A stretch of 64,000 nt of DNA, from assembly GCA_964016885.1 (NCBI GenBank), contig OZ024753.1, positions 35,898,001 through 35,962,000 of the forward strand, written 5' to 3'. Under the pieces are notes generated by a model. That model was not told the DNA's origin, ran no database searches, and saw only the letters and a list, made by a program, of their open reading frames with translations. Position numbers and translations under genes: made by a program. Positions 420 to 45,567 of the stretch are shown piece by piece (the stretch's first letter is position 1; every line of letters begins with the position of its first letter). This DNA is from Eledone cirrhosa. Lineage: Eukaryota.

Positions 420-3400
420 GTAAGTTAGGAATACTTGTACTATTGCCTGTCTCGGAGAAGAATTACTAATGAGTAATATTTAACATTTTATATGTATTTA
501 AAAGTCTTTTAAACCCTCATTTACCATGTAAACACATGTAGTGTTTGACACAAAATGTAAACTTTTGCACAACATTAGACTTAAAACTACACAAGCGGCA
601 TTCGACTACTCTTTAAAATAATCACTGGAATGGGGTCATCTTCTCTATTAGGAATAATATCCCCATATTTTGACCAACCCTTTTCTGCTGCTGGAGGGAG
701 CCCACAATTTGGAATGCTTATTCCTATATCTCTCTTGCCATTCTCTGGAGCAAGGCTTTCTCCTTTCTGTCTGCTGGAACCACGAGATGACCTGTGCATG
801 GGTACCAATGTTATGACACTACTAAAAACATTTCCCTGTCATATTTCATATTTTCTCTCATTTTAGAGGTCATAATAAATGTAGATGTTTTGACTGCTTA
901 ATAATGAGAAAGTTTGTTATACTAAATCTCCCCAAATTTTTTTTATAATTATTTTCCAAATCATTAGAAAACAATAAGAAGTGTCTTATTAAAACATGGT
1001 AATGAAAGAGTTAATTACATTTTCATTTCATCCATTCACATCACAAATATTTCACGTTTCTAAAACTGCCTTTTTTCATTTGTTGTTCTTTCTAGATAAA
1101 AAGTCACATGTGGTTATTTGTAAATTGTCTAATTGAAAACCCGACTTTTGATTCCCAAACTAAAGAAAATATGACACTGCAACCAAAATCATTTGGTTCG
1201 AAATGTCAACCCAGCGAGAAATTTATTACTGCCGTGAGTATTCTTTTATTATTTAAAAAATGTTTTTTGTGGCTTGTAGGAGCCTAGATAAACATACATC
1301 GATGTGATCAACATGATAGGACTGGATTCTAGCATTAAAACTTCCGAGAAACTTTCTATGAGATGCAACTTTGAAGGAGGCCAGCTAAACCTAGACAGTT
1401 GTAAGCTGTAACAACATGATAGGATTGGAGCCCCTATCATTAAAACATCTAAAAGTGCCCTTGGGATACGACCTTGTAAGGAGACCAGCTAAGTGTACAT
1501 AGTGATGAGCTGTAAATTTAATTTTTCATTTTATTTGTGTTTGCTCCTAGTTCAGGGGAGATTTTTTTTCCATGCTGCAATTTACAGTAAACGGAAAAAA
1601 GAAAACCTCTTTTAAATTTTTTAAATTTTTTACTGTTACAACATATTTCTTCTCACCGGTCGCCGTTGAAACCTCAGGCATCCTCGGACCCCATACAGCT
1701 GAGCTCCTTTGCAAAATCGGAACGTCAACAGCCTGTTTGAGGAAGGAGCCCTGCGTGTTTGGGGTGGGTGTTGCTAGACATTGTCTGTGGGATGCAGCCG
1801 AAATACAGCCCTGACCTAGGCACATAGTCTGTCACCTTCTCCCGTTGCCTTGCCTAATAGTCCTTGCTCTTTCCTGACTTTTCTTCACATTTATGGCATT
1901 TATAGTCCTTTTCTTTACAGCCAGATCTGCCCTTCTTTTACCCCCCTGTTTTCTGTTTTGTAGGTAAGCAAATGTGGTATTGTTGAAAGTGTGATGAGTT
2001 GGATGAAGTTCAAAGAACAAGCTCAGCTACAGAAGAAATGTCATAGCTCAAAACACTCAAAACTAAAAGGGATTCCTAAACTGGACGATGCCAACTGGGC
2101 AGGAACAAAGAATTCCATCCACTGTACATTAATTCTGACTGAAGGAGATTCAGCCAAGTCTTTGGCTGTGGCTGGTCTCGGAATAGTTGGCAGAGATTGT
2201 TACGGTGTATTTCCCCTCAAGGGTAAAGTGTTAAACGTTCGTGAAGCTACTCATAAACAGGTGAGTATTTTTATACAGAATTTTCATTTTTCACTCCTTT
2301 CAGTATAGTATAGTAGACGAAGCAGACAATTGAAAATGGAGATTGAAATGATTGGGTCAGGTCAGGTCTTGAGTTGATATCTGGTTGTTGTATATATGGT
2401 GTCTGCTACTGAAATTGTGAGTGGCTGGCTGATAATATCTCCATTAGACATCTGTGATTGTTGTGCATGGGTGGCCTCTGTTCACAATGCTGTGGTGATT
2501 TCACTGATTGAAGCCAACATATATATATAGTGCCTGCTACTGGAATTGTGTGGCAGACTGACAATATCTATGTCAGACGTCTGTGATTGCCACTTATGGG
2601 TGGCTTCTGTTCACAAAGCTGTGGTGACTTCACTGGTTAGAGCCAGCACATATATGGTGGCAGGCTGACAATATCTATGCCAGACATCTGTGATTGCCAC
2701 TTATGGGTGGCTTCTGTTCACAAAGCTGTGGTGACTTCACTGGTTAGAGCCAGCACATATATGGTGGCAGGCTGACAATATCTATGCCAGACATCTGTGA
2801 TTGCCACTTATGGGTGGCTTCTGTTCACAAAGCTGTGGTGACTTCACTGGTTAGAGCCAGCACATATATGGTGGCAGGCTGACAATATCTATGCCAGACG
2901 TCTGTGATTGCCACTTATGGGTGGCTTCTGTTCACAAAGCTGTGGTGACTTCACTGGTTAGAGCCAACATATATATGGTGGCAGGCTGATAATATCTATG
3001 TCAGACATCTGTGATTGCCACTTATGGGCAGTCACTCTTTGTGATGGTATGGATGCTCTGGTTAGCACTGGCTTAACCAAAACCAGGTGAGTGCCAACTC
3101 AAGTACAAGTAATGTAATTATTTAATGATGAAAACATTATTTTTGAACTCTTTGCATTGCATAACATCTTATATTATTGCTTTAGATTATGGAGAATGCC
3201 GAAATCAACAACCTGATCAAAATTCTTGGACTTCAGTTCAAAGAGAAATACGAAGACGCTGAGAAGATACGTTCACTTCGTTATGGTAAAATTATGATAA
3301 TGACAGATCAGGATAATGACGGCTCTCACATCAAAGGATTGATAATCAACTTCATCCATCATTTCTGGCCCAACCTTTTACGACACAATGTAGTAGAAGA

Positions 3401-6400
3401 ATTCATTACACCTATTGTTAAGGTCAGTAAATGTTTTCTTTAACTCTTTAGCATTTAAATTGTCTGCATTCGGCCAGAATTCTCTCAACTCTTTCTGTTC
3501 AAACCCACCCTAATTGGCCACTCATACTGATGTTAAAGGTATGTTCTCAAAATAAATAACATCAAAATATCATAGCTTCGATATTATGTGAGATAAAGCC
3601 CTTACTGCCGAAATACAATAGTATATATAGAGTAATGTAAATGTTAACACTTTCTAACTAACTGATCCCATGCCATTGATTCATGCTTTTACAACACATT
3701 GACTCATCCCAAAGAGTTATTAATTATTTCATTACTAAAATGGTAATTTAACATGTCTTTGAAATTAAAGATGTATCTTCTGAACAATTTGAAATATCTT
3801 TGAAATTAAAAATGTACCTCCCGAACAATTTTTCAATTTAATATTATTGGATATTTTAAGAGACATAGTTTTATATAGAAATATCTTTGAAATACCCCCC
3901 CCCCCCCCCCCCCCCCCAAAAAAAAATACATGCCATCTATTAATAGAACTGTTATTTTATTCTTGCAGGTGTCAAAAAATAAGGTAGAAAAACCTTTCTA
4001 TTCCATACCAGAATTTGAAGAATGGCAACGTCAGACAGACAACTGGCATACATGGAAGGTCAAATACTACAAAGGTTTTTTTTTATTTTTTAACCTTCTT
4101 TAGGTCTTAGTAGCTGTTGATGGGCACCCCCCACCACCCCCACCCTCAATATCTTATTTATTAAATATTATATGATAGTCCTCGTCGGAGCAAGGTACAG
4201 CGTGGTCAACTCTGGTCAGACTTGTCTCCCAACGTGGGAGACCCGTCTAACCCATTCAAGCATGGAAAAATGGATGTTAAACGATGATGATGATGATGAT
4301 GGTGAATGACTTGCAATAATCTCCTTTTTTAATTTTTGTGTGTTTGTATGTGATGAATAGCAGTCGTTAGAACACCAGATAGAAATGTTTAGCAGTATGC
4401 CTTCTGGCTATATTCACTTTGAAATCAAATCTTGTCAAGGTGAACTTTTTCTTTTGACCTTTCAAAGTCAATAAATAAAGTATCGGTCAAGCCCTGGGGG
4501 TGACCCCCTCTGCCCGCTCCTTATCTGGAAGAAATTTGGATGTGTTCAGACCCAGAGAGGGATGGGCTCCATTGTTTAAAATGGTGATCCTAAGACTCTA
4601 TTAGGAGTTAAGGGCCTATGGGTGAATGGTTGGTCTGTAAATATGTGATAAACTAATTCTGTTGTATGCGGTAGTAAAGTTTGTATAAGTGACTCACCTT
4701 TTTACTGACACCTACTCAACCATGATGTCTGTTTTCCATGCTTACATGGGTTAGATGAGATCCTTTTCTGGCAGCTTGACAGGTTTCCTACAGCTGGATT
4801 TCTTTCCTGATACCAAGCCATACCTTATTCTAAGTATGGTACATGCTGGAAGACATATTGTTTGTTGGAGTCATAAACAACTGCTACTGTAGGTTTTATA
4901 TGGATTGTGGTGTCGAAATGCGGTTTGTAGTGTCGTATCACATGCTATGACGTATTTGTTAGTAGATTCTGCTGTGTAAAGTGTTTGTCCCTCAATTGTA
5001 CCTTCAGTGTTTGTTGTATTGTTTTTATCTTATCTTATAAATTGTGGCCCAGTAATGCAAGTCATGTCTCCTCTATTTCTTATCTTTGTCTTTTCTAATT
5101 AAAGAAACTGTAGTTATATATATTTACATTGGAAATAACATGTTAATTTACCTGTTACGGTGTTGGCTTGTCACCCATAGCTAATTTATCTGCATTTTGC
5201 TATTAGTTAAGACTTAAGACTTTCATAACCATATATCTAAGGAAAGACACCACCTACGATTTGCAAAACATCAAAATAATCGAGAATTTGGAGAGAGAGT
5301 TAGTAATATAACTAACATTCTTGTTAGTGGTGTGTGTACTACAGTTAAGTAGAGTTCACTGGTCTATGTTGCAGTAATTATGGCTAGTTGACAAAGTGTT
5401 TAACCCTTTAGCATTTAAACTAACTGTATTCGGCCAGAATTCTATGACTTTCTTTCTGTTCAAACCAGCCGTAACTGGCTGCTTGTACTTATGTTAAGGT
5501 ATTGTTCTCAAAATAAATAATATCAAATCTCGTAGATTCAATATTAAGTGAGATAAAGTGTTTACTGTGAAAATACAATAGTATATACACAGTAATGTAA
5601 ATGCTAAAGGGTTAAATTGACTATCTCTTCTCCATTTAACTGTAAAATCTGTAACAGACTGCTATATATATATATTAGAGAGCATACTCTGCTGATGGAT
5701 AGTAAATAGAGAAGAAGCATAATAATTCGTTAAATTGAATTTTTAACAGTTCATAATGTGTTTTCTTTTCTTTTCTTATTTGGGGACTTCTCCATCTCCC
5801 AGGTTTGGGTACCAGCACAACAAAAGAAGCTAAAGAATACTTTTCCGATATGGATCGCCACAGAATACCTTTCAAATATGAAGGGCCAGAAGATGATGCC
5901 TCAATAAATCTGGTTAGTTAGCTATCTATTACTTCTTTGCATTTTTATTTCTTTATTTATCAAATTACTTGTTGTTGTGAACACCATCTTGTCATTCACT
6001 TTTTCTGACAAATAGAGAGGGGTGAGGTTACTGCATACCTATTCTTAGCCAGTATATATATATTAAAACTAACATTAAAGTTTAAGCAAAGAATTGCTGC
6101 TTTCACCCTTAACGGGGTCTTCTCGTTAAGGGTGAAAGCAGCAATTCTTTGTTTAAACTTTAATCTGTTATTTAATAAATATTTGCTCTATGGTTTTATG
6201 TATTTCTTTATATATATATTTATCCTTATCAAGCCCTCTTCGGATTTTAGTCTTCACATTTATTATTATTGCTATATATATATATATATATAAGAAGGAA
6301 AGAGAGAAGGGAAAAAGAAAAGGAAGGGACACACACAGTCAACGCTGTAATGTGGTTGTGTAGGTAACAGTAAAAAGCTCCCAGTCCACACTGTAAATAT

Positions 6401-8002
6401 GGTTGGTGTTAGGAAGGGCATCCAACCGTAGAAAACCTGCCAGATAGTCCTATACGAGCAATCTTACCTCAAATGGGACAATTCCCGACCAATCTTACTT
6501 CAAATGGGACAATTCCTGTTTAACCCATGCTAGCGTGGAAGATATACGTTAAACAATGATGACGATGATATATATATATCATCATCATCATTATTATCAT
6601 TTCATTTTACGTCCGCTTTTTCCCTGCTTGCAAGGGTGGGACGGAAACTGATTCTGGCTTGATTTCTACAGCTGGATGCCCTTCCTAACACCAACCTCAT
6701 TTACAGTGAGTGGTGGTGCTTTTTTGCCGTGGCACCTCCACGACCACTTTGCAGTGGAATGATATGGACCCCAGTCCCTATCATCTCATTTCTACAGCTG
6801 AGTAAACTGGAGCAATGTGAAAATAAGTGTCTTGCTCAAGGAAACAATACATCACCCGGTCTGAGAATTGAACTCACAACTTTCGATTGCAAGGCCAATG
6901 CTCTAACCACTAAGCCATGTGCCTCCACGTATATATATATATATGCACAGGAAACAAGTACCACCAATCTCTGGGAGGGCCCTGTAGAAACAGTAGACAG
7001 CTTCTGCTACCTAGGTGACCGAATTAGCAACGGAGGTGGGTGCTCAGAAAGTACAATAACTAGGGTAAGAACGGGATGGAAGAAGTTTAGGGGAACTACT
7101 ACCACTGCTAGCTGCAAAAGGCTTCTCCCTCAGAATGAAAGGCAGACTGTATGATGCGTGTATCCGAACAGCGATGTTGCATGGTAGTGAGACCTGGGCG
7201 CTGAAGGTGGAAGACTTACGTAGATTAGAGAGAAACGAAGCCTGCATGCTCCGATGGATGTGTAACAGTAATATACGTGAACGACAAAGCATAAATGAAT
7301 TGAGAGAGAGACTGAGCATAAGAGGAATCAAATGCTGCGTGCAGGAGAGGCGGTTACGCTGGTATGGACATGTGATGCGTATGAAGGATGACAGCTGCAT
7401 AAAAAGGTGCAGAGCACTAGAAGTTGATGGAAACGCGGAGTGGGGAGACCCAAGATGACTTGGGATGAGGTGATAAAAGCCGACCTTACCCAACTACACC
7501 TCTCAAAGTCCAATGACACACGACCCGTGACTTCTGGCGTCACGCAGTAATACAGGGTACCCGACCTCCCATGGGTACATGCTGAAGCATATAAACAATA
7601 TGCCCCCCCCCCCCCCCCCCCCCCCCCCCCGCAAGGTGGTCGTGGAGGTGCCACGGCAAAAAAGCACCCAGCCCACACTGTAAAGTGGACGTGTAGGCGC
7701 CACGAAAAAGCACCCAGCACTCACTGTAAATGAGGTTGGTGTTAGGAAGGGCATCCAGCTGTAGAAATCAAGCCAGATCAGTTCCTGTATGAGCAAGGCA
7801 TGGTCAGCCGACCAGACACTGCCCACAACAGGACAACCCGTCCTAACCCATGCTAGCGTGGAAGAACGGACGTAAAACGGTGATGATGATGATGATGATG
7901 ATGCACACGTACACACACATGCAGGGTGACACTTCAACAGCATTCTAATAAATATTGCCTGTACAGGTAATCAAAGTGTGTATACATTTTTAAGGAACAG
8001 TT

Positions 8003-8043
<41 letters not shown>

Positions 8044-9384
8044 TTAATATAGATGAGATTCTACAGGACTAGAACTGTTTCATTCATTTGAAATCATCAG
8101 ATTCCTGATGATTTCAAATGAATGAAACAGTTCTAGTCCTGTAGAATCTCATCTATATTAAAACTGTTATACTCTGCTATGTATTGAGTACCTTACTGTG
8201 GTTACCTCCGATTCAACCCGGAATAACGTATATATATATATATATATATGACAGGCTTGGTACATTTTGTATGTTTTTTTATGACATTTTTCTAAATTAT
8301 GACATTTTTGTAAATTATGACATATTTCTTTTTTATGTCATTTTTTTTTTAGGCCTTCAGTAAAAAGAAAGCTGATGAGAGAAAAGAATGGCTTAGCAAC
8401 TGGATGGAGGAGAAACGAAGAAGAACAGAGATGGGACTTCCTGAGGTGAATATTATTCAAAAATACTTTCCTTCCATCCCATTGCTCTTATATTTCCAAA
8501 AGGAATGGAGCTACAAAGGTTTAAGTAAAATGAATGGGAAAAGGTTCTGAGAGCTACTATCCCACTTGACAACAAAAGGGGTTTCTCTCTCTCTCAATGA
8601 AAGGCCAGTTGTATGATTACTGTGTGCAAAGTGTGATAGTACTGAGACGTGCAGGGAATACATGAAGGCTGCACAGAAGGGAAGTGATAATTGTCTTGAT
8701 GAATGTGATGTTTAATGTGCATGAATGAAATAAGAGGAATTAGATGTAGTGTGCATCCTGGTTGGCATAAAAAATATTATTGTAGCTTTATCGATTGTTG
8801 AAAGTAAAATTAAATTTCTACATCCTGAATACTGACATTAATCCAAATAATTTTTATTGTTTTCTATTTTATTTTGTCTGTAGCTGTTTTTGTATGCCAA
8901 AGGAGTGTCGGAAATAACCTACAATCAGTTCATCAACCGGGAGTTAATTCTGTTCAGTTTCACAGATAATAACCGTTCAATCCCTTCGCTTGTTGATGGC
9001 CTGAAACCTGGTCAACGTAAAGTAATATTTACCTGTTTTAAAGAAATGACAAGAAGGAAGTGAAAGTAGCCCAGCTGGCTGGTTCTGTCGCAGAACTTTC
9101 CAGCATACCATCATGGTGAGGTAAGAACTATGGAACCAGTACATTTTCTCTTGAAAACCTGTAAAGTTATGTGCTACCATACTAAATGGTGCCATTTTTT
9201 TTTTTTTTTCTTCACTACCCCTGAACCACTATTTTGTTCTGTAGCACACACTAATGCTCCTTTCAATCCAGCTGCTTTTCAATGTGTATCTGAATATATG
9301 ATTAGTAGCTACCTATATATATGTCTGTCACTCACTCACTCACTCACTCACTCACTCTCCTCTCTCTCTCTCTCTCTCTCTCAC

Positions 9385-9482
<98 letters not shown>

Positions 9483-11691
9483 ACACTCACATATATAAAA
9501 ACACAGATATCTTGATTACATCAGAACCAAATGCTAACATTTGAGTTTTTTTCTTCCATTTTCCAGGCTTCACTTATGAGCACAATTATCAACTTAGCCC
9601 AGAACTTTGTGGGCTCCAATAACATAAATTTACTTCTGCCTATTGGGCAGTTTGGAACCCGGTTACACGGAGGCAAGGATGCTGCTAGCCCCCGTTATAT
9701 TTTTACACTATTAAGGTACGATATATTAATTGCAATCATATAGGTTCTATTTCAGTTTGGCTTTCTCAAATCAGACATTACCGCCTTCATCATCATCATC
9801 GTCATTGTCATTGTCATTGATGGCGCTGGCATGATTTGGCAGTGTTCTATGTCTGAATGAACTTCTTGATAATCTTTGTTTTTGAAATGAGATAATCTTC
9901 TCACATCAAATGTAAAGCAAAAATACAAGAGCCCCTCCTGTGTGTGTGTATATGTTTATATCTACACATACACACACACATTCAGACATTGAATAACATT
10001 TTTTCAGATATGTTTTATTCATGTTGTCAGTCCTGAGACACTGACATATCTTATAGAAACTTAAATAACTCTTACATCTTCATATATACTGAAATTTATA
10101 AATGGCTTAACATGTTTCATATTTTATTTCTTATTCATTTAACCCTTTAACATTTCCATGACACTATATTTACTATTCTATTTTGTGGTAAAGGCTTTAC
10201 CTCACATAATACTGAATCTATGAGATTTTGATATTATTTATTTTGAGAACAATACCTTAACGGCTGGTTTGAACGAGGTGAGAGGATTCTGGCCTTTAAC
10301 GACCGGTTTAAATGCTAAAGGGTTAAAAGTCTAATCGTCACTCAACTGTTTTGTCCAGTAGTAAAGATACTTTAAACGTTTCAATTAATAACATTTTCAG
10401 ATATTTTCTGCCAAATCATTACAAGCAGCTTGATGTGCGAGGGTTGGTGTATGTGGTGCTTATTTAGTTTTTTTCTTTTGCATTTGCAGTCCTGTGACGA
10501 AAAGGATCTTTCATCCTCATGATATGCCAATCTTGAACAACCTCTATGACGACAACCAGAAAATAGAACCTGAATACTATATTCCCATTATTCCAATGGT
10601 ATTGGTAAATGGAACTGATGGCATTGGTACAGGATGGAGTACAAAAATTCCAAATTACAACCCGAGAGAGATTATATCAAATATCAAACGAATGTTGTCT
10701 GGAAACGATCCTGTCGAGATGGTGATTATTTTTAACTTCTTTTTTTACTTCACATGATATACCAGTCATATGATGAGGTGATATTCTAGTGAGTGTGTTT
10801 GTTTGTGTGTGTATCAAGATCAACATCATTTAACATTTGTTTTCTCTGCTAGTAAGAGTTGAACAAGTAGTCACAAAGCAAGTCAGTACTTAACGTTACT
10901 GACCTCTCAGACAGGCCAAGTGCAGCAGCTTGCTTATGTATGTTCCAGCATTTTATGGCACTAGGGACATTGTCATGTCTTTGACACAACTGAAGTGTCC
11001 TCCTGGACTTTTTGTTTAGAAGGATTTCTACTGTTGTTGTTGTTTTTACCCAGTTCCAATTTTTAGGGATGTCTTTACATATGGATGCCCCTTTTCACAC
11101 ACACACACACACACACACTAGTGTTTCCTGTCATATGACTGCTAATTTTGGGAGCATAATTTTGCTGTTATCAGTGTGACCACCTATATATATATAGCAA
11201 ACAGTTCTAATCCTGTAGAAGCCATTTCTATATTAAAAAACAAAAAAAAACAAAAAAACTCCATGCTGTAAAGTGGTTGTGTAGGTAACACGGTAAAAAG
11301 CACCCAGCACTCACTGTAAATGTGGTTGGTGTTAGGAAGGGCATCCAGCCGTAGAAAACCTGGCAGGCAGTGCTATACGATCGAGACACGGTCATTCGAC
11401 CAATCTTGCCTCAATTGGGACAATTCCCGTCTATTCCATGCTAGCATGGAAGATAGACGTTAAACGATGATGATGTTATTGGATAACTGAATTCTATTAC
11501 CAGAATATCCCCTAATCCCAAGGATGCCCTTAGGATGTGAAATTTAAATGAACATTGTACTAAACTAAGCTTAATATTAGATATATACTCTTTATAGGTA
11601 AGTTTTCTATAAATACTCCCCACACATGCCAAAATTAAATATATGAGTGATACATGGTCATCAGATGTTTGTAAAACAAATAGTACGTGTG

Positions 11692-14900: not shown

Positions 14901-17900
14901 CTGTAAGGATGAACGGCCAAGGTTAACTTTGCCTTTCATCCTTACAGCGGTCAATAAAATAAAGCATCAGTAATTCACTGGGGTCGATTTAATCGACTTT
15001 CTCCTTCCCCTTCAAATTGATGGCATTGTGCCTAAAGTAGAAACAATTATAGTTATTTTCCTATTCTTTGATAATTCATAAGGTTTTATATAAAATTGAA
15101 TGTTTTAGGATAAAGATGACACTGAAGATGATGAGAAAGAAGAATCAACATCAGGACCAGATTTTAACTACATCCTTAATCTACCACTGTGGTGCTTAAC
15201 CAAGGAAAAGAAAGAAGATTATATACGTCAACGAGACGCCAAGGTAGGTTTTTAGTGATTTTCAACAACTTAATCATCAATAGAAATGGGACTTTTTTAT
15301 CAGTGGAAATGGGACTTGTTTCATCAATGGAAATGGGACTTGTCTCATTAGTGGAAATGGGACTTGTCTCATTAGTGGAAATGGGATTTGTCTTATCAAT
15401 GGAAATGAGATTTGTCTCATCAATGGAAATGAGATTTGTCTCATCAATGGAAATGGGATTTGTCTCATCGGTGGAAATGGGACTTGTTTCATTAGTGGAA
15501 ATGGGATTTGTCTCATTAGTGGAAATGGGATTTGTCTCATTAGTGGAAATGGGACTTGTCTCATTAGTGGAAATGGGATTTGTCTCATTAGTGGAAATGG
15601 GACTTGTCTCATTAGTGGAAATGGGACTTGTCTCATTAGTGGAAATGGGATTTGTCTCATTAGTGGAAATGGGATTTGTCTCATTAGTGGAAATGGGACT
15701 TGTCTCATTAGTGGAAATGGGACTTGTCTCATTAGTGGAAATGGGACTTGTCTCATTAGTGGAAATGGGATTTGTCTCATTAGTGGAAATGGGACTTGTC
15801 TCATTAGTGGAAATGGGACTTGTCTCATTAGTGGAAATGGGACTTGTCTCATTAGTGGAAATGGGATTTGTCTCATTAGTGGAAATGGGACTTGTCTCAT
15901 TAGTGGAAATGGGACTTGTCTCATTAGTGGAAATGGGACTTGTCTCATTAGTGGAAATGGGACTTGTCTCATTAGTGGAAATGGGACTTGTCTCATTAGT
16001 GGAAATGGGACTTGTCTCATTAGTGGAAATGGGACTTGTCTCATTAGTGGAAATGGGACTTGTCTCATTAGTGGAAATGGGACTTGTCTCATTAGTGGAA
16101 ATGGGATTTGTCTTATCAATGGAAATGAAATGTGTCTTATCAATGGAAATGGGATTTGTCTCATCAATGGAAATGGGATTTGTCTCATCGGTGGAAATGG
16201 GACTTGTCTCATTAGTGGAAATGGGATTTGTCTTATCAATGGAAATGAAATGTGTCTTATCAATGGAAATGAGATTTGTCTCATCGGTGGAAATGGGACT
16301 TGTCTCATCAATGGAAATGGGACTTGTCTCATTAGTGGAAATGGGATTTGTCTTATCAATGGAAATGGGATTTGTCTCATCAATGGAAATGGGATTTGTC
16401 TCATCAATGGAAATGGGATTTGTCTCATCAATGGAAATGAGATTTGTCTCATCAATGGAAATGAGATTTGTCTCATCAATGGAAATGGGATTTGTCTCAT
16501 CAATGGAAATGGGATTTGTCTCATCAATGGAAATGGGATTTGTCTCATCGGTGGAAATGGGACTTTAGCCCGTTTCTTCATTTCATTACCAATTTCGTTC
16601 TTTCTCTTGTGTAAGAAGCTGTTAATTACTATTAGTCTATATAAACAGTCTTTTTCTTTATGGTGTTATTGCCTCTCCCCTCCCCATAAATTGCGGGCCT
16701 TGTCCCTTAATTAGAAACTATTATTAATTACATTGTGTGTTTTCTTTTAAGGCTGATGAACTTGAACTTTTGCGGCGGAAGAGACCGGAAGACCTATACA
16801 GAGACGATTTGGATGCCCTTCTAATAGAGCTAGACGTAAGTTTTATTTGTTATTTGTTGATTTAACTCTTAACGTCCCATACCAGATGAAACCGCATCAA
16901 TAAAACATTCTTGTACAGTAGTAAAGTATAAAACAACAGCACTGTGACTTCGTTACATTAAAAATTAAAGTGTTTTCTTTAATATTGCAAATATTTACAA
17001 TGATGTGTCCACTTGTCAAAATACTCGAAACATTTAAATGAACAAACATGTTTTTAGATATTTTCTGGTAAATCATTACAGGATGTGTCGAGTTAACAAG
17101 TTTGGTCTGTTTTCTAAAGGGAAATGAGGAGAATAAATGGGAAAAAGATAGTCTGCCTCAAATCGATCCAATAGAAAGACCAGCAGTGCAAGTTAGAGGT
17201 AGTATAATAAGTAATGCAGTCAAAGATATGAAGACAGGTAAGGCAGCTGGGCCTTTGGAGATAGTTGCTGAGATGTTGAAGGCATCTGGAATGGTGGGAC
17301 ATACTATGGTCACCCGTATAGTTAACCAAGTAATACAGAATGGGATCATAGCAAAAGACTGGCGTAGCAGCATCATCATTAACTGCTACAAGGGTAAAGG
17401 GGATGCTCTAGATAGGGGAAACTATAGCGGCATTAAGTTAGTTGACCAGGTCATGAAGGTCACAGAAAGAGTTATAGCGCAACTAATCAGAGTGAATTGA
17501 TCTAGATGAAATGCAGTTTGGGTTTGTGTCAGGTAAAAGTACCACAGACGCTCTTTTCCTTGTACGACAACTACAGGAGAAGTACCTAGCTAAAAGTAAA
17601 CCCCTCTACTTAGCTTTTGTAGACCTGGAGAAAGCTTTTGACAGAGTCCCCCGCTCCATTAACTGGTGGGCTCTTAGAAAACTAGGTGTAGATGAATGGC
17701 TTGTGAGAGCTATACAAGCTATGTATAAAGAAACAGTCAGTAAGGTTAGAATTAACAATGAATATTGTGAAGAATTTAGTGTAAAAGTTGGTGTTCATCA
17801 AGGCTCTGTCCTTAGACCCCCTCCTATTTATTATTGCCCTTCAGGCTATAGCAGAGGAGTTCAAGACCGGCTGCCTATGGGAACTCCTATATGCAGATGA

Positions 17901-20900
17901 TCTAACGCTCATAGCTGAACTAGAGAAGAAATTCCAAACATGGGACATGGAAGCATGGCCTAGAATCAAAAGGCCTTAAAGTTAACTTGTCTAAGACTAA
18001 AGTTCTAGTTTGTAGAAAGGTAAATAGGGCACAGGTGCCCTCAGGGAAATGGCCATGCTCAGTGTGTAGGAAAGGAGTAGGCAGAAATTCCATTTTATGT
18101 CACAAATGCAAAGTATGGGTACATAAAAGATGTAGTGGGATCACAGGTAAACTATCTAAGAACGTAGACTTTATATGTGGCCGATGCTCAGGTGCAATAA
18201 GTAGCAAGTGTCCACAGGAGACTAGCTCCTTCTATTGCCCAGATGGTTCTATAGAAATAGTGGACACTTTCCGTTACCTGGGTGACGAAATCAGCAGTGG
18301 TGGAGGGTGTTCTGAAAGTACAGTAGCCAGAGTCAGAACGGGATGGAAAAAGTTCAGAGAGCTTATACCACTGTTGGCCACAAAAGGTTTCTCTCTAAAA
18401 ATGAAAGGCAGATTGTATGATGCCTGTATACGAACAGCAATGCTACATGGCAGTGAGACATGGGCATTACGTGTAGAGGACCTGCGCAGACTGGAAAGGA
18501 ACGAAGCATGCATGCTCCGTTGGATGTGTAATAGTAATATATGTGAACGGCAAAGCATAAATGAACTAAGTGAGAAATTAGGAATAAGAGGGATCAGATG
18601 CTGTTTACTTGAGAGAAGACTACGTTGGTATGGCCATGTGATGCGCATGAAAGACGACAGCTGTATAAAAAAGTGCAGGGCAATCAAAATTGATGGTAGT
18701 TACGGAGTAGGTTGACCCAGAAAAACCTGGGACGATCTGATAAATTCCAACCTTACACACTTGCACCTCTCTAAGACAATGTCACTGGACCGAGATCTTT
18801 GGCGCTACGCAGTTATACAGAAGACCCGCCTTGCCTATGTACAAAGCGAAACCTACAGTCAGTAGGCACCTCTTAACCAAATATACACCCCATCCACTAC
18901 CCCCCCCCTCTCTCCCTCTCTCTGTAAAGTTGGTACCACAACATCCAGTGCTAATAAATGAGATCGAGATCATGTAGGTGTCACAACAAAAAAAACACAG
19001 TCCACGCTGTAATGTGGCCGTGTAGGTAACACGGTAAAATGTTCTTAATTCCACACTGTAAATGTGGTTGGTGTTAGGAAGGACATCCAGCCATAGAAAA
19101 CTTGCCAGATAGTCCTATATGAGCGAGACACGGTCACCCAACCAACCTTGCCTCAAGTGGGACAACTCCCGTCTAACATGGAAGATGGACGTTAAACAAA
19201 GATGATGATGGTCGGCTTATATTCGAGTGTATACAGTAATTTTATGTTATTCTCCAAACACCAGACTAATAAGGATAAAGTTAGTTATATTACTAAATCC
19301 TTCTTAATTCTTGATTATTTTCGAAATGGTTTGAAAATCATAGGCAGTGAGTTATATTAAAAATGTGGAAGGGAAAGGGTTAATAAAAATATTTGGACAA
19401 GGGTTGAGGAACTTTTGGTAATCTTAACTTTTTTGTTATTATCTTGATTTCTTTTTATGCAGCAATTTGAAGAACAAGAGCGGCTAGATGAGAAAGTTGA
19501 TATCGTGAAAACCCAGAAGTCTTCTAAGGGCCGTGTAAAACAAAAGAAGATAACCCTTGAAGAAACAATGCCCTCTCCTATTGGTCGACGTATTCAGCCG
19601 GTAATTGATCATGCTACCAAAATAAAGGCTGAAAAAGAAGTAGCTTCTAAGAAGCGGCAACAAGTAAGTGTAACACTTTACCTGCTACTCTGATTTATGT
19701 TATAGGGCTCTATCCAGCTGTCTATCCACCTGTCTTTCTATGTCTATCCATTGTCCATCTAGCTGTCTCTCCAACTGTCTTTCCATCTGCCTGTCCATTG
19801 TCTATCTGGCTACCCACCCAACCATCAATCCATTCACCTATCTATTCACATATAACTATCCATTCATCCATCCACCTGCCTGCCCACCTGTTCATTCCAC
19901 CTATCTATCTAATTACCTGCCTGTCCATTCCATCCGTACATCTACCTGTATATTCAACCACCTCTCTGTCTTCTTTCCATTTACCTGTCTTACAATAGAT
20001 CTGTCCACCTAACAATATTTAAATATCGCTACAAACCTACAAGCAACAAAATATTCAGTTTGAAACTAACTTGATATTTTATTATCTTGTCAATATTTAG
20101 AATCACCAACTGGGCTCTGCCAAGTTAAAAACAAAATGCCCTAGAAATGCTGTATGTCACTACAGCACCCCTATGACTGCCATCAGGAGTTATGGTATTC
20201 CTGGAAAGGATAATGTTATTTTTTCTTTTATTTTGTTTTACAGATTAAGAAAGGAATGAAGGAAGAAAATGTTGGTGATGAAAATTCACAAGAACCTAAA
20301 AGTTTAATTCAGCGCCTTGGAGAGCCAAAAGCCAGTGAGTTTTATGTTTATTAAACCCTCTATTTCAGGTCTCTTCCTCGATTTTTAAAATCTCTTATAT
20401 CAAAGAAAGTTGAAAACCTCTATGTATGAGCAGGGCATGGTAATCCAACTTGTCTCACCTCAAGAATGTGACAACCCATCCAACTCATGCCAGCATGGAA
20501 AACAAACCTAAAACTGGTGATGATGATGATGATGATGATGGTCATCATCATTCTAAAATGTGCAGTTTTGTATTGTAGAACCAGGGGTAGTTTAGGCTGC
20601 ATTTGTAGAATCATTAATATACAAAGCTTCTTACGTAGATTTCTGCTGGGAGGGTTTTAGATAAATATGAACCCTTTAAAATAGGCAGTTTTATATCTCA
20701 GATACAGGACTGGTTTCAGGTGAGTTATCAAAAGGGATAAATATCTTTTATTATGTGGTGTGGGTTTTTTTTTCTTCTTTTTGTAATACTGTGTCGTGTC
20801 ATGCCATGCCATGGTCCATAACTTCTAGTGGAGTCATAAGGGTGATATATCTCGGTCATTTTAGACTTGATGAAGCCTCTTCTTGGAGGAGTAGAGAGAG

Positions 20901-29900: not shown

Positions 29901-31113
29901 ATAATCATAAAAGTATTTTCATTTTCTTCAATCATATGTATTTAGAATAGGTACACCCATATACCCCTGTGTGACTTAACCTTTTAGAATTTACATTACT
30001 CTGTTTACTATTATACTTTCATGGTAAAAGCTTTACCTTACATAATTATCTCCCATAATATTGAATCTATGAGATTTTGAGAATGATACCTTAAAGTCGT
30101 CGGTATGAGGGGCAGGTTACAGCTGGTTTGAACAGAAAGGGGTCAGTTTAAATGCTAAATGGTTAAAGGGTTTGTGTGGAGAAAGGTATCCAGAAGTAAA
30201 ACATTGCCTTCAAAGGTCTTGTCTTATTCATGCTAGCATGGAAAAGTTGACATAAAATCAACAATGATGATGATGATTTGTGTGAAGTTTCAATACTTAC
30301 AGGCACATCATTGGGAAAAGTTAGAAGATAGTTTTATTGATTTTCATGTTTTTCCTTATTTGTCTTATTCATTTTCTAGAAAAACCTGTTAAAAAGAGAA
30401 AGACCAAGAAAAAGGAAGATAGTGATTCTGACAGTGGTTTCTTACCCAAGAAACCTAAAACAACCAAAACAAAAAAGGTGAGAATTTTGATCCAACCAAG
30501 AGGTCAATTGCATAAATTAAATAATGACTTGGTGTTGCACTTAAGATCATAATGTCATGGGTATGATTCCTGGACTGAGTTGTGTTCTTGAGCAAAACAC
30601 TTTGTTTCATGTTGCTCTAGTATACTCAGCTGAACATGAGTAACAGCAATAGCTGGGAGTTTAATCCTGCGATGGACTGGCGCTCTGTCCAGGGCAAAGT
30701 CTTATAATCTCAGTCGCTTCATGCCACAGGAATCGGGATAAGCACTGGCCTGATGGCTCCCTTCCAGCCCCGTGACAGATTTAGTAGCTATGTGTGGTGG
30801 TGTGGAGCAATGTGTGTTTGTCTATGGCATAAATTAAATAATGACTTGGTGATGACCTGTCCAACCCTTGCTAGTAGGGAAAACAGACATTAAATGATGA
30901 TTACTATATATATATACGTAGGTCCCGGGTTGAGTCGGGGATAACCACAGTAAGTAAGGTACTCAATACATGGCAGAGTAAAATTTTTTATTTTATAGAA
31001 GGAGCTTCTACAGGACTAGTACTGTTTCATTCAGATGAAATCTTCAGGAAGCTCCTGAAGATTTCATCTGAATGAAACAGTACTAGTCCTGTAGAAGCTC
31101 CTTCTATAAAATA

Positions 31114-31144
<31 letters not shown>

Positions 31145-33559: not shown

Positions 33560-34050
33560 TCATCTGGGATCCTGGATAGCAGGGTGTCAAGATAACATCC
33601 ATGCAGATTTCTCAAATTTCTTGGCAGATTGTTGAAGAGTTGAGGACCTTTGAACCCAGGCTATTGCAATATCTGCTTCTTATTCTAGATGTGAAAGACG
33701 GGACCTTTGGCACCACAGTGACGTCCCGTTCTCAATGCCAAAGTTTGGTGCTAGTCCCTCCAAGATTTTCCATATGTGTATCACTCCCATCTTCGTTCCA
33801 AGGAGTAGAGGTTCAGTTTTTTTTAGTCTCTCCCAGTAGCTCATCTTCATTGTGGCAATCCTCTTGGCGTAGCTTCGTTGGATTGCCTCAAGCTCCGTGG
33901 TTAGTTTGATACTATGGGGTGACCACAGCTGGGACCAGTAGTCCAGGCGGCTTAGGATAAATGTCCTCCATAGTATCAACATGGTCTCTTGTCCGGAAAG
34001 TCCAAGATCCAGCCAGCGAGTCTGGACATTGTTGCCACCCTCATGATGTG
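33560..34050 (-). mobile_element. Degenerate CR1/L2-type LINE RT fragment
   Basis: TFILSRLDYWSQLWSP..ELEAIQRSY...SYWERLK. Confidence 0.8.
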
Positions 34051-35258
34051 TGAAAAAAAACATGCATAATTGCTTGTGTCTATCCCTAGGTCTCGTATCG
34101 ATTTCGACACGTGGAACAAAGAATCGTAAGAAGAAACTAAGAATGTAAATGGTTCTATGGTGCATTCATTGTGTAGATTACCAACACGAGAAAGGTTGTT
34201 TGTGACTTTGACACAAGTGAAGGGACTTCTCAACCCTTTTAGGCATGGTTTCTACGACAGGTTACCCTTCCTATCACCAACTGTCATATGAAGTGTAGGG
34301 GGGTACATTTTCGTAGCACCATCATTGGTTCATGATAGAGTGTTTATACAATAAGGATAATTGTGAAGCTGTTTAAAAATCCTTTATTCGTAAAGCTGTA
34401 CTACATATTTCAATGGTACACATGGTTTGATCATGCTACATCATCTTATGTAAGGAGGTTACGTTTCCAAAGCAATCCATGCTAAAGACAGGGGAACAGA
34501 CAGATATGATGTTTTCATTACTTATGTCCATTCCCCTGTGAACTTTAGTTCCACTCTACAGGTGTGTGCAGTTGATTGACCATCTACCGCTCCCACTAGG
34601 CAGTTAGAACCATTAAAGTAAGCCTATATGACACACCAAAGCCACCCTCCTCCACAGTTGGTGAAATACTAAGGTCACAGACTTAATTAAATTCACTTGA
34701 AAAATTTTTTGCTGTGCCACTGGGTTTCATATTATAGATTTATTGTTATCAGCACAACCACCTTATAGGGAGGCCTGTAGGGTTTTTATGATGTGGCAGG
34801 ACTGTTGAAGAGCAGGTGTGGAGTTTGGTTAGTTTTCCATTGCTTGGGCACATAATATATAAAAATAATTTATATAAAACTAGCCGAATATACCAGCACC
34901 TTGCTGCGTTTCACACATTGTCTTTTGTAAGAAAATGGTGATTGATTTTAAATCAGTGATGTAATTTATGGAGAAAAACTGCATTTCAATATTAATCAAT
35001 GTAAAATGTAATGCATGAAAAATTGGAAAACATCATTTTTTGTAATATATCAAATCAAAATTACATTATTAAATCTTATTCTTATTTTGTTTCTTGTAAA
35101 TAATTTTTTTCAAAATATCAATTCAAAACTTTTGTCAATAGACATCATATCTTGTCATTTAGCTATGGTTTAAATTTGATATAAATCGAAAGGAAAAAAG
35201 TTTCAGCAGGGGTTTGTGCCTCCTGGGAACCCTAATAGGGGGTTTAACCCCCATTATA

Positions 35259-38200
35259 CAACTAGATATATTAAAATTATATATGTATATATTATAGTTA
35301 TATATATATATTATATTTATTTAATTAAAATATATATTTATATATATTTAATAAAATATATGTGTATAAATACATTTATATATATATATTATATACATAT
35401 AATATATATACCTTATATATGTAGTATATATCTCTAAGGTGGGTAAAATTCCCGAGATCCATGGACGAGTGCTCTCCAGCGGTCTCTGTCCCTCATTATC
35501 GCTACCATGTCCTGCGTCTCCAACAGACCAGTGTCTGTCCTTAGGGCATCAACATACGTTAAACTTGGTCTTCCTCTTCCAGTGTGTCCATGTAGGGGCT
35601 CCCACAGGAGCACTGAGTGCAATGTCGGTGAGCATATCCAGCTAACCTCAGTCTCCTCTGTGTCACTTTTGAGCTGACTTTTGGGATGCTCCCATACAGC
35701 TCTGAGTTTTTCATCCTCAGTGTATACTGATTAATGTTCAGAGCCATTCTCAGCATTCTCGTGTAGCACCCATCCACCAACTGAGTGAGTTTCTTGGTCA
35801 GTAACCAAGTCTCAGATCCGTACAGCAGCACAGACTCCACTATTTGGTGACAAATACAGTGAAGGAGGCAGAGGATTTGATGCAGGAGGTTGAGACTGTC
35901 GATGAGTGTGGGGATGAGACTAAAACAATATCTGGTAGAGAATGTTGAGAAGCCAGAGGGGGTCACTAATGTAGGTGGGAAGCCGCTAGAATTGGTTGAG
36001 GACTTCCTGTATTTGGGAGCAAAGATTGGGAATACGGAAGATGATGTGGTTGAGAGGAAGAGCAAGGCCTGGGCGGCGTGCCACAGCTTGAGATCGGTGT
36101 GGAAGTCGGACCTTCGTAGAGACCTGAAAATCCGCCTCTTCATTGCTGTAGTATATATAATATATATATGTATGTATTAATATATATAGTAATTATTTAT
36201 ATAAATATAAATATATATATATACGATATATAAAATGGGAAGTATACAATCTAAAAAGAATCGAACTCACGATCGTGAAGTCGCAATGGCTTTAAATACT
36301 TTGCGCATGCGCACTGATGTCTACTTTTTTGCGCATGTGTAATTGGCTTAATTCTGTTTCGCAAAAACAAAATGGCCGCTGGAACAACTTCATGTTTTCC
36401 AACCTGAATGAAAAACGTTAAAAACTTGGAATTTACTATTTATAAGGAGGTAAAGTAAAGTTTTATTTTATGTTGTCTGTTCCACTTTACATGTGTGTGC
36501 AGTTGATTGTCAATCTGCCACTCCTAGTAAGCAGTTAGAACCATTGAAGTATACCTACATGGCACACCAAAACCACCCTCCTCCATAGTTGGTTAATTAC
36601 AGGTGAGAGGGTAATTGAAGCAGTTTAAGGACGTATACTTCTCGTGGGAACCTCTACGGCCTGCTACTTCTCGTAGGATCCTCTTGGTCAATGCCAGGTT
36701 AGATAGGGACATAGGCACTTTAAAGGCGTAAACATCTCGTACGATCCTCTACGGCCAGCTAAACCATAATCAGTGCCTACTTAGAGGGCGTAAACATCTC
36801 GTAGCATCCTCTACAGCCAGCTAAAGCCTGGTCTATGTCGTGAGAGGGCAATTGAAGCACTTTAAGGGCGTAAACTTCTCGTACGATAATCTCTGGCTAG
36901 AGGGTGAAAGAAGCAGTTTTAGAATGCCAACTCAGCCAAGATGAAAGGCAAACCTAACCATAACAGGAGGGTTTCGACTCAGAAAGTCGCAACTAAATAT
37001 TGTAAAACAACCTGTCCGACATTCTAGCGATACTGAGTGTTGTAACATAAAAATTGCTCAAGAAAAACCGTATGTCAATACGGCGCCCTTATCATGAGTT
37101 ACAGGACAATACGATACCATATATATATCTATATATGCTGTACTTAGGCCCGGGCTCCGCTAGGCTTTAAGAATTGCTCAAGAAACAGCGTATGTCAATA
37201 CGGCGCTAGTAACAGGAGTATTTCAACTTTGAAGATTGTAGAAAGTCGCATCTAAATATCGTAAAACTATCTGTCCAACATTCTAGCGATACTGAGTGTT
37301 GTAAGGTGAAATCAGAAGTCTCTGCGACTTGTGATTATAAATTATACAAGTTGAGAAATACACCTGGAAGAAATCTGCTTTACCCAGACCTGGCGGAGCC
37401 CAGCTAGGCACAAGTTGAAAAACGTAAATCTGGAATAAATCTGCTGTTCTCAAGCTTTAAAAAATACCAAAGAAACACCGTATGTCAATACGGCATTCAT
37501 ATCAGGAGTTACAGGATGTCAATACAGCGCCCTTAATAGGAGTTACAGGACAATACCATACCATATATATAAATTCTGTACTTAGACACGGGAAGGGACG
37601 GGCTCTGCCAGGCTTTAAAAATACCGTTGCCGCCGTGGCTACTGTGAAAAACGACTTTTACAGGTCTTGGGACAATGCTCACCCCATGACATCAAGATCA
37701 TCCTGACGGACCCAAACGCTCACATCATCATCATCTGCCGGGTCCACAGAAGAGCTCAACTCGACAATATTGATCATCGGTTGCTGGTTGCGAACGGACC
37801 CTGACACCAAGTCTGGGTGTGACGTCCTTGTAAACTCAAGACCCCTTCCCAAACGGCCCTTTTTAAATTGTCGCCAGCGCTGCTCAACAGGATACACATG
37901 AAAGTAATTCATTCGGAATACATTTTTTTTCATTAAAAAAAATTGTTAATGCGTTGTATATATTTATATGTATATATTCCTAATAAATGTAGCGGTCCTG
38001 GCGTCAGTAAGCAATCTAAATTTTTAATTATTCATTGAAGAAAAAGATATAAACGAAATGAATGGAGGTAATTTGTTCAGAATTGAAATTTTCATGAGAA
38101 AATTGTTAGTGCCAGACGATACTTTTAATGAATATAATTTCATAATTTATAGAGAAAAAAATGTTCAGAGGTCGAATCCCTCATCGTCACCATACCACCA

Positions 38201-41678: not shown

Positions 41679-41732
<54 letters not shown>

Positions 41733-42759
41733 TGTTAGTTCACTATTTTCAGGAAGCCCTGATGATTTCTCCCGAATGAAACAGTTCTAGTCCTGTAGAA
41801 GCCTTTTCTATATTAAATATATATATATATAACAAGACTAGAAACGATCATAAAGCAGTGAAGTATTTTCCTAATGACTTGAATTTTTATTTCATTGTTT
41901 TAACTTATATATAACAAGACTAGTGTAGTTGTAAATACCGTAATATTAATTAATCAATTTCTGTTTTAAAAAATTGATTAAAATATTATTTAATTAAAAT
42001 ATTTTTTTAATGCAATTCTTAATATCTTATAAGGCGGTGAATTCGCAAATTGTTAGATCATTGGATGAAATGTGTTGTCGTGGTTTTTGTTCCGGTTCTC
42101 TTCTCTCTGGATTCAAATCCAACTGAGGTTAACTATATTGATAAATAAATAAAATAATATTCCAGTTCTGTACTGAGGGAGTGATTCTTTCTCCCTCACT
42201 CTTTGAGGGGGAAAAGTGTCAGTTGCCTCTTAGTGTAATGGTAAGGTACTAACTAACACAGTATTCGAGAGATATGGGGTTTGATTCTTCCTAGGTGTCT
42301 CTGTTTATATTATATATATACAATATAGTATAACATATATATATAATATAATATATATATAATATATATTTATTATATAGATATGTATTATATATAATAT
42401 ATAGCCTTACCTGTTTTGTATTTTCTCCATCTTCACCTATAGTTAAACCAATACAAACAAACACAAGCAAAATGCAACATTAAACCTATTTCTTGGCTTC
42501 AGAAATAAACACAGAAGAAAAAAAGATAACTTTTGAGGGTTTCAATTTTTTATTTTTTAAATTCTTCTTTGACATGAATTTTTCTTCTTCTTCTTCTCTT
42601 GTCTAAATACATTTTTCTTCTTCAGACAACAATATTTTGACAGGTTTTGCGGAACCATTCCTTTAGCAATTGTAAAGTGTGAGCCCCAGATAACATCAGT
42701 GATACGGTTTAGTACAGAACTAAAGGGAGAAAATGATATCTTCAACAGAGTCGTAATAT

Positions 42760-43605: not shown

Positions 43606-43609
<4 letters not shown>

Positions 43610-44172
43610 TGTTATACTTTGGGAGGGTCATGTTGCCAATAAGAAACACACGCACCAGTTGCTTTCACTTCAATTTAATTTATTATATATTTATAAATTT
43701 ACAAATTTATAAATTTCTGGTTGGTTGGTTGGTTCCACAACCAGATAGTTGTTTATATATATATAGTCATAGTTCTTTCGTCACACACTCTGTGACCTCT
43801 TCAGTGACTGGGGATTTCTTTCTTCGTTTCTGTGCCTTTCCTTTCTTCTATCCTACGCCAAAATGGCGTAGGATAAAAGAAAGGAAAGGCACAGAAACGA
43901 AGAAAGAAATCCCCAGTCACTGAAGAGGTCACAGAGTGTGTGACGAAAGAACTATGACTATATATATATAAACAACTATCTGGTTGTGGAACCAACCAAC
44001 CAACCAGAAATTTATAAATTTGTAAATTTATAAATATATAATAAATTAAATTGAAGTGAAAGCAACTGGTGCGTGTGTTTCTTATTGGCAACATGACCCT
44101 CCCAAAGTATAACAATATCGGTTTCAACACACGATTTCAGATAAAGAATCTTGCTAAACAAATTCAGAAACG

Positions 44173-44175
<3 letters not shown>
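43606..44175 (+). mobile_element. Penelope-like inverted pLTR: 255-bp arms, 3-nt loop, 3' tail, in (TA)n
   Basis: Arms 43606-43860 and 43864-44118 with one mismatch; a hammerhead in each arm. Confidence 0.7.
43915..43959 (+). ncRNA. Minimal type I hammerhead ribozyme motif (second family; mirror copy at 43765-43809 on -)
   Basis: AGUCA-CUGAAGA-G-GUCACA GAGUG UGUGAC-GAAA G AA C UA-UGACU. Confidence 0.75.
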
Positions 44176-44404: not shown

Positions 44405-44585
44405 CAATCAATATTAACAAGATGAGGAATAAAAAATAAAACTCTAGATGAAACCTGTGATATAGATTGTGATTCTATAGTCGCAGTTTAAGAGTGTGGG
44501 GTGGGGTTGTGGTAGGTTTATGTGTACACACACGTCCTCATCCTCATCATCTAGCATCGTCATCATCATCATCCGTTTTTCCTGC

Positions 44586-45567
44586 TATGTGGACCACTTT
44601 ATGTGGACCACCTTATGATGAGCCATGTCCTATGTGGACCACTTTATGTGGACCACCTTATGATGAGCCATGTCCTATGTGGACCACTTTATGTGGACCA
44701 CCTTATGATGAGCCATGTCCTATGTGGACCACTTTATGTGGACCACCTTATGATGAGCCATGTCCTATGTGGACCACTTTATGTGGACCACCTTATGATG
44801 AGCCATGTCCTATGTGGACCACTTTATGTGGACCACCTTATGATGAGCCATGTCCTATGTGGACCACTTTATGTGGACCACCTTATGATGAGCCATGTCC
44901 TATGTGGACCACTTTATGTGGACCACCTTATGATGAGCCATGTCCTATGTGGACCACTTTATGTGGACCACCTTATGATGAGCCATGTCCTATGTGGACC
45001 ACTTTATGTGGACCACCTTATGATGAGCCATGTCCTATGTGGACCACTTTATGTGGACCACCTTATGATGAGCCATGTCCTATGTGGACCACTTTATGTG
45101 GACCACCTTATGATGAGCCATATCCTATGTGGACCACTTTATGTGGACCACTTTATGTGGACCACCTTATGATGAGCCATGTCCTATGTGGACCACTTTA
45201 TGTGGACCACCTTATGATGAGCCATGTCCTATGTGGACCACCTTATGATGAGCCATGTCCTATGTGGACCACCTTATGATGAACCATGTCCTATGTGGAC
45301 CACCTTATGATGAGCCATGTCCTATGTGGACCACCTTATGATGAGCCATGTCCTATGTGGACCACCTTATGATGAGCCATGTCCTATGTGGACCACCTTA
45401 TGATGAGCCATGTCCTATGTGGACCACCTTATGATGAATCATGTCCTATGTGGACCACCTTATGATGAGCCATGTCCTATGTGGACCACCTTATGATGAG
45501 CCATGTCCTATGTGGACCACCTTATGATGAGCCATGTCCTATGTGGACCACCTTGGGATGAGCCATG
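44586..45567. repeat. Minisatellite: 45-bp units switching to 31-bp units
   Basis: tatgtggaccactt+tatgtggaccaccttatgatgagccatgtcc, then only the 31-mer. Confidence 0.97.

Follow-up and report, generated by a model that had tools for sequence, protein, structure and literature searches.

A hammerhead-bearing fold-back element in an octopus TOP2 intron, likely the truncated 3' end of a Penelope-like retroelement

The closest described systems are the endonuclease-bearing (EN+) Penelope-like elements (PLEs). Their insertions feature an adjacent inverted, 5'-truncated copy, a tail at one end only and microsatellite targets, and the palindromes at their head-to-head junctions have been read as products of self-priming (PMC3846280, PMC8557442). 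Hammerheads are found in pairs on opposite strands, 100–700 bp apart (PMC4209133). In vitro, both strands of the target are nicked and then extended by a Penelope-like protein, which prefers AT-rich DNA; reverse transcription starts at two internal sites bounding the tail, on uncleaved RNA, and hammerhead cleavage is dispensable for it (PMC11167929). How PLEs make their inverted ends and what role their hammerhead plays are described as open questions (PMC8557442, PMC11167929). Proteins of the Hydra clade are characterized by RWK and DKT motifs, a CxCX5C linker and an endonuclease without CCHH (PMC8557442). For Octopus vulgaris, 30 recently active Penelope families have been reported, with hammerheads and palindromes not mentioned in the portion of that source at hand (PMC13282606, Table 1).

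The window, i.e. the whole 64-kb stretch of DNA analyzed, carries on its + strand the host gene TOP2, whose exons span about 318–31544 (located using tblastn with full-length TOP2 homologues and the Pfam domains Toprim and DNA_topoisoIV). Among the best 8000 candidates scored, one TOP2 exon was 98% identical to that of Octopus bimaculoides, which marks the genome as octopus-type. The element under study (copy 1; Table 1) occupies 189 bases at 8040–8228, is bounded on both sides by (TA)n runs, and sits in the TOP2 intron between an exon that ends near 5915 and one that begins at 8353, both on the same strand; it is sense to the gene and has an intact hammerhead core. The left arm is complementary to the right arm at 61/61 positions across a 4-nt loop, and the perfect 61-bp palindrome (8040–8165) is followed, on the right side only, by the 63-nt tail. 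These results agree with an earlier note on this DNA, which had described a perfect intronic palindrome starting at 8040, with the same sequence and coordinates, and had proposed (TA)n targeting. The short overlap at the fold-back junction is AG; it would lengthen to CAG were the linker of the tandem reads (below) the native upstream sequence. The tail was judged to be non-coding because of its stop codons and a 4-nt insertion present in 875/2229 reads. A SINE head was considered and rejected: there is a B-box-like word on the minus strand of the tail, with no room for an A box.

Table 1. Coordinates of the element, its parts and the other family copies in the window
Feature	Position	Strand	Remarks
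TOP2 intron holding copy 1	5915..8352	+	start approximate; next exon starts 8353
Upstream (TA)n target run	8006..8039	.	sequence; border with left arm ambiguous by 1 base
Left arm, a tail-less inverted copy of the end module	8040..8100	-	antisense to the ribozyme in the + strand transcript
Type I hammerhead motif	8099..8149	+	descriptor search; predicted cut after 8143, GUA triplet
Palindrome loop, inner stretch of the 5' strand of stem I	8101..8104	+	fold-back junction
Right arm, with the hammerhead core, the 3' strand of stem I and an AT-rich end	8105..8165	+	3' end of tail-less family members at 8165
63-nt tail, one end only	8166..8228	+	no open frame from its ATG
Bulged tail hairpin	8172..8188	+	pattern derived after the sequences were seen
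Downstream (TA)n target run	8229..8249	.	sequence
Copy 4, partial: stem III through the tail-less end	11199..11238	+	in TOP2 intron
Copy 2	30917..31118	-	arms 30984-31118, hammerhead 31000-31056, tail 30917-30983
Copy 3	41749..41817	-	left arm intact; right arm lost after CUGA

Judged by its sequence, 8099–8149 is a complete type I hammerhead motif, for which cleavage is a prediction. Stem I pairs 8099–8104 with 8144–8149; the core comprises CUGAUGA (8105–8111) and GAA (8124–8126); U8112 faces U8123; stem II has three pairs (8113–8115/8120–8122); and stem III has four (8127–8130/8139–8142), closed by an 8-nt loop. The core residues C3, U4, G5, A6, N7, G8, A9, G12, A13 and A14 were all found, as were the A15.1-U16.1 pair and H17. 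Three stems surround the core and the ends are closed by a covarying stem I, as in type I hammerheads. The usual G10.1-C11.1 pair is replaced by U.U in 3/3 window copies that have a stem II. A strict motif (stem I of at least 6 bp, stem III of at least 4 bp) was found twice in the window and never in 100 block-wise dinucleotide shuffles of it; a looser motif occurred 4 times, compared to a mean of 0.05 in the shuffles. The full core, GUA triplet, cut after 8143 and 6-bp stem I claimed in the earlier note were all recovered in this way. That note had placed stem I in the right arm, which holds for its 3' strand but not for its 5' strand, where AG is the end of the left arm and ATTC is the loop. 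The covariance-model check that it proposed had a negative outcome: in the window, Rfam matched nothing as a hammerhead at E<=1, and its matches were to miRNAs, hairpin-driven and under the gathering score. Accordingly, the hammerhead call rests on the descriptor search and not on a covariance model.

The U.U pair, which according to the earlier note may be specific to this family, is also present in published hammerheads and hence not family-specific. Natural examples with U10.1-U11.1 have been reported, and this mismatch is the best tolerated one (PMC3088659). The axolotl ribozyme HHR_Amex2 has the U.U pair and self-cleaves (22% in 1 h as a monomer, better as a dimer; PMC7229834), and the same pair was counted in 14/25 Hydra-clade families, two of which share one motif (File S2 of PMC8557442). 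When viral and metagenome contigs were scanned for this stem II, 76 loci provided 80 matches, of which 52 were distinct after 28 duplicates had been dropped. Thirteen of these 52, representing 11 different motifs, can be completed to hammerheads of type I or type III, versus 1.6% of 10400 random-flank controls, and several sit between phage-like genes.

Further observations were made on these contigs. Type I/III hammerheads with U.U plus the UUC/GAA stem II are present in L003, L004, L006, L018/L064, L021, L023, L026, L040, L055 and L059, often just 5' of small phage-like genes; Rfam gave no match for the U.U variant in L003, L004, L006 and L010. A second hammerhead occurs in L003 at 1692–1735(-). 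At L050:1380–1550 (also in L057 and L061), a U.U type I hammerhead with a palindromic stem III is located in the 3' part of eukaryote-like transcripts; in L050 it comes directly after a stretch that looks tRNA-like by eye, an arrangement that suggests a SINE with a ribozyme. L074 has a 767-nt head-to-tail unit with a U.U core in each copy and an ambiguous stem I, and is a possible retrozyme. L014 has a decayed reverse transcriptase (1490–2914, minus strand; RVT_1 4e-8) and, some 500 nt beyond it, a type I hammerhead with U.U and a stem I of 4 bp; its stem II is the same as that of the family, its score of 8 is below the cut-off of 9, and no GIY-YIG was recognized. By its motifs L014 may be a PLE, and we count it as weak support.

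Four copies of the family are present in the window, at 8040 (copy 1), 30917 (copy 2), 41749 (copy 3) and 11199 (copy 4). Copy 2, whose arms form a perfect 66-bp palindrome (66/66), lies in the last TOP2 intron, antisense to the gene. Its hammerhead had been cited in the earlier note as a homologue with another stem I, N7 and loop II, a description that stands, with a stem I of 9 bp. The covariation of stem I proposed there is strengthened by a third variant in copy 3 (GGCUUC/GAAGCC) and by further variants in the reads; across copies 1–3, stem I is fully paired in three different sequences. In copy 3, the right arm is replaced by 19 nt (41730–41748) that precede (TA)n. Between copies 1 and 2, 118/142 aligned positions are identical (83%; they differ at 17%). 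In 3/3 folded copies, the sense strand starts within the stem I 5' strand, and 1–4 letters at the junction are assignable to either arm, the length of this overlap depending on the inferred native upstream sequence. A linked GIY-YIG+RT ORF, as the earlier note had suggested seeking, was not found beside any of the four copies in the window.

The RVT_1 remnants at 17072–18715 and 63314–64000 were rejected as the ORF of the element, as they are not linked to it. They belong to decayed non-LTR retrotransposon remnants, located at 6663–7493, 17072–18715, 33680–34165, 35559–36176, 56177–56764 and 61990–64000, within which Pfam confirmed RVT_1 at 17496–17897 and 63314–64000. The window also contains minisatellite arrays at 15176–16714 (in a TOP2 intron) and 44473–45279, with units of 24-nt and 48-nt types and repetitive open frames. 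A third palindrome, at 6074–6164 in the same TOP2 intron as copy 1, has a 40/41 arm match, a 9-nt loop and short (TA)n flanks; its minus strand shows a hammerhead-like stem II plus GAAA, with the first core box broken.

It is unlikely that the palindrome itself is the replicating unit. That it spreads as one, whether as a DNA element of fold-back or MITE-like type or through whole copying of a hairpin RNA, would fit the terminal (TA)n and long inverted repeats, which are MITE-like, and the similar position of the junction in three copies. Terminal inverted repeats common to the copies were nevertheless not found, because the tail lies outside the repeat on one side and the arms, identical within copies, differ between them. 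Moreover, the junction letters vary from copy to copy, there are tail-less, fragmentary and tandem copies, and loop and 3' strand of stem I covary even though the hammerhead cannot fold inside the hairpin. We consider the idea largely refuted and its probability very small.

The abundance and variation of the family were assessed by matching reads or contigs from four of 23 sequencing runs to 8099–8228 at 80% likeness. In run X21, 6003 of 12.47 million reads matched; 8128 contigs matched in X1, as did 5205 in X5, which derives from another organism. These thousands of matching reads and contigs from two organisms indicate that the family is very abundant and common to both, with the proviso that summed contig depths are not a copy number. 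Run X16, which is RNA only by guess, had 0 matching contigs, a result without bearing on expression.

Within X21, loop II is hypervariable, its positions differing in 21–68% of reads. The core changes G5>A (169/2712), A6>G (249/2820) and G12>A (390/4459) were found in 6–9% of reads; they were the only core changes among the 40 of 98 variants listed, and reads had to align to be counted. By depth, the same changes amounted to 0.2–2.7% in the contig runs. Conservation is not limited to the core, since stem III and loop III were also without variants among those 40 of 98. The stem I 3' strand does vary (8147 in 985/2569 X21 reads). Consensus letters of the loose ends on the two sides are complementary, which points to further stem I variants, at a low agreement of 0.41–0.62; upstream of stem I, the loose ends had no dominant sequence (agreement 0.41–0.49). 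The module ends 3' at either of two places, 8165 (433 X21 reads) and near 8226 (59 X1 contigs), with (TA)n following in each case. Fold-back joints were found, in contigs as well as reads, at 8101/8103 (5 reads), 8102/8119 (9 reads) and 8102/8121 (95 reads), with others at 8120/8167 and 8120/8171; they represent a small part of the reads, 109 over the first three joints, 95 of which come from 2 start sites. Head-to-tail joints from 8161 to 8099 were present in 71/6003 reads (17 starts), with a 14–15-nt linker shown for 49. Because these tandem-joint reads show the stem I 5' strand outside palindromes, the covariation of stem I is not just a consequence of arm copying.

Some of these data bear on a reading that amends the small non-autonomous family put forward in the earlier note: a Penelope-like protein would mobilize a short non-autonomous RNA template in trans, and insertion would still generate the inverted arm. 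Such a template would extend from stem I to the tail end (about 130 nt), or consist of a 77–78-nt tandem unit plus the tail, and would be close to a minimal retrozyme. The clustering of 5' ends at stem I, the loose ends without a common upstream sequence, the head-to-tail joints, the non-coding tail and the many loop II and stem I subfamilies all accord with it. However, the tandem joints comprise about 1% of the 6003 reads and are without most of the tail, as in ordinary partial tandems of Penelope (PMC8557442); the known repeats of animal retrozymes measure 150–450 bp (PMC7229834); and a non-coding tail is also expected of an element whose ORF begins deeper inside, which is the case for the Hydra-1_Obim consensus. 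We regard this short template as possible but rather unlikely.

The layout of the element matches published PLE insertions (PMC3846280, PMC8557442), which supports the Penelope-like origin suggested earlier. As in EN+ PLEs, the terminal repeat bears a hammerhead and has an optional tail, and a truncated copy, inverted or in tandem, adjoins it on the 5' side. The element is therefore likely a truncated, dead 3' end-piece of an endonuclease-bearing Penelope-like retroelement, and the family is a new, abundant octopus family of this known class. The window provides its own control for the Penelope-like reading in an unrelated fold-back of the same arm-arm-tail layout at 43606–44175. That Penelope-like element has 255-bp arms (254/255 match), a 57-nt tail, (TA)n flanks and a complete textbook minimal hammerhead on each strand (43915–43959 on the + strand and 43765–43809 on the - strand); an ATG frame of 28 codons runs from 44093 through its tail, like the start of an ORF.

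Sequence features suggest that the source clade is probably the Hydra clade, the likeliest candidate. The family combines a (TA)n target with a canonical hammerhead near the 3' end, as that clade does. According to File S2 of PMC8557442, (TA)n is the target in 26/27 Hydra families and stem III is ACAG/CUGU in 4/25; one family is from Octopus, and one has a 5' inverted copy. The U.U pair in 14/25 of these families, noted above, speaks for the same clade. The published octopus Hydra element is not the parent, because its hammerhead differs, and the words of the family were not found in the part of the PMC8557442 supplement at hand. Nor was the family found in the literature on octopus hammerheads or in that since 2021 on Hydra elements, within a coverage that left out Repbase and most subscription journals.

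One new lead concerns the tail: the sequences suggest a candidate hairpin common to other PLEs. In the PMC8557442 supplement, three Hydra consensus sequences carry the hairpin of 8172–8188 at their ends, in versions that differ by paired changes. Its 3' words occur 9 times in the available part of that supplement, and 4 of these occurrences fit the whole hairpin (3 Hydra, 1 Naiad). The hairpin does not fix the clade, because one occurrence is in the Naiad part. Tail hairpins fold no better than shuffles (fold z of -0.9 for 8172–8188). Since the pattern was built from the same sequences, and after they had been seen, a count of chance occurrences would be circular and the hairpin is to be taken as a lead. 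A tail hairpin conserved across clades was not found in the literature on tail stem-loops, in a search lying mostly outside subscription journals.

The competition between the palindrome and the ribozyme was modeled using nearest-neighbor energies, without tertiary contacts. Adopting the hammerhead fold cost 69.7 kcal/mol in the whole element, 28 kcal/mol with 20 nt of arm and 3.1 kcal/mol in 8099–8149 alone. The construct 8095–8155 recommended in the earlier note is less suitable: it takes in left-arm bases and is predicted to misfold, at 7.6 kcal/mol. In the + strand transcript, the antisense arm precedes the ribozyme. Within TOP2 pre-mRNA, copy 1 is predicted to form a 61-bp duplex rather than to cleave. 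Because the hairpin is predicted to outcompete the ribozyme fold, the genomic copy should be inactive, and selection must act in unfolded source copies. Stem III could self-pair as a dimer (-12.8 and -15.2 kcal/mol), so dimer cleavage would be possible there.

These energies also bear on whether copy 1 has been domesticated as a cis-regulatory ribozyme or dsRNA element of TOP2, acting by antisense-switched intron cleavage or as an editing or siRNA substrate. The copy is sense to TOP2 with its core intact, and a 61-bp duplex would be a substrate for ADAR or Dicer. Yet it is one of thousands of copies, the perfection of its arms suggests that it inserted recently, copy 2 is antisense in the same gene, and the antisense arm is transcribed first, with 20 nt of it already costing 28 kcal/mol. 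Domestication seems to us scarcely credible. An improbable idea is that the inverted arm is a built-in off switch, with fold-back at stem I placing an antisense lock 5' of each ribozyme, and that the tail hairpin is a conserved signal positioning the reverse transcriptase at two start sites. If the off switch were real, active sense hammerheads could accumulate in octopus introns without cutting host pre-mRNA. Literature on the intron orientation of ribozyme-bearing insertions, searched with most subscription journals outside the coverage, held nothing on antisense masking. Retrozymes are depleted from introns, and the available part of the source reports no strand analysis (bioRxiv 10.64898/2026.07.22.740005).

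The explanation that we prefer, and hold to be fairly probable, is that the hammerhead-tail module with its inverted arm in (TA)n is the likely truncated 3' end of an EN+ PLE, probably of the Hydra clade, with an arm likely made during insertion and a ribozyme predicted to be masked by it. Two cDNAs, with and without the tail, may be involved, or one cDNA that snaps back. One cDNA would start at the far end of the tail, cross the uncleaved hammerhead and stop at stem I, likely where the template RNA begins or the enzyme stalls. Its 3' end would then pair over 1–4 nt with the tail-less cDNA or with itself, and fill-in would yield the palindrome; for self-pairing, the CUGA box could be used, as it is complementary to the AG or CAG just 5' of it. 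Each insertion likely generated its own inverted arm, because the arms are identical within a copy and the copies are 83% alike. The ribozyme would be selected only in the non-palindromic source RNA, which would account for the covariation of stem I. Points against this explanation are that neither an RT nor a GIY-YIG ORF is linked to a copy in the window, that fold-back joints are few among the reads, and that a family-specific pattern gave 0 matches, and no longer relative, in metagenome contigs, bacterial and archaeal genomes and viral contigs. The lack of a common upstream sequence in the loose ends fits a short master RNA as well.

On this account, a very abundant octopus family is added to a known class. 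Palindromic repeats in these genomes can be by-products of retroelements, and repeat tools may call them MITEs. Both of the PLE questions given at the outset become testable in one genome, through junction counts and intron orientation, because the family offers young copies by the thousand, two defined 3' ends, a stop that is fixed at stem I and a tail hairpin that is a candidate for conservation.

Compared to published PLE insertion units (PMC3846280, PMC8557442), the element likewise has a tail-less, head-to-head inverted copy with a small junction palindrome, and the family shares the tail at one end, the hammerhead in the repeat, the microsatellite target and the occasional partial head-to-tail tandem. 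It differs in its size (189 bp), in being without an ORF, in folding back inside stem I of the ribozyme, and in the length of its tail (63 nt versus 30–40 nt). Hydra-clade PLEs resemble the family in their canonical type I hammerhead about 100–200 nt from the 3' end and in a 4-bp stem III starting with AC; in contrast, the UUC/GAA stem II is absent from the Hydra table as available, and loop III has 8 nt in copy 1 versus 0–3 nt in that table (PMC8557442). With the minimal hammerheads of metazoan PLEs (PMC4209133), the family has in common the core, the type I topology and a palindromic center of loop III (CUAG/ACUAGU) that would allow dimers to form, whereas it lacks the combination of an extra nucleotide and G10.1-C11.1, its stem II is short and weak, and its stem III has 4 bp. 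Like the family, the non-LTR retrozymes of animals (PMC7229834; bioRxiv 10.64898/2026.07.22.740005) are non-coding and PLE-related and carry a type I hammerhead, but they form tandem arrays of 150–450-bp units that give circular RNAs. The present family consists of dispersed, tailed fold-backs: its copies in the window are not tandem, a single head-to-tail joint was seen in each of 71/6003 reads, and its rare tandem joints define a unit of 77–78 nt.
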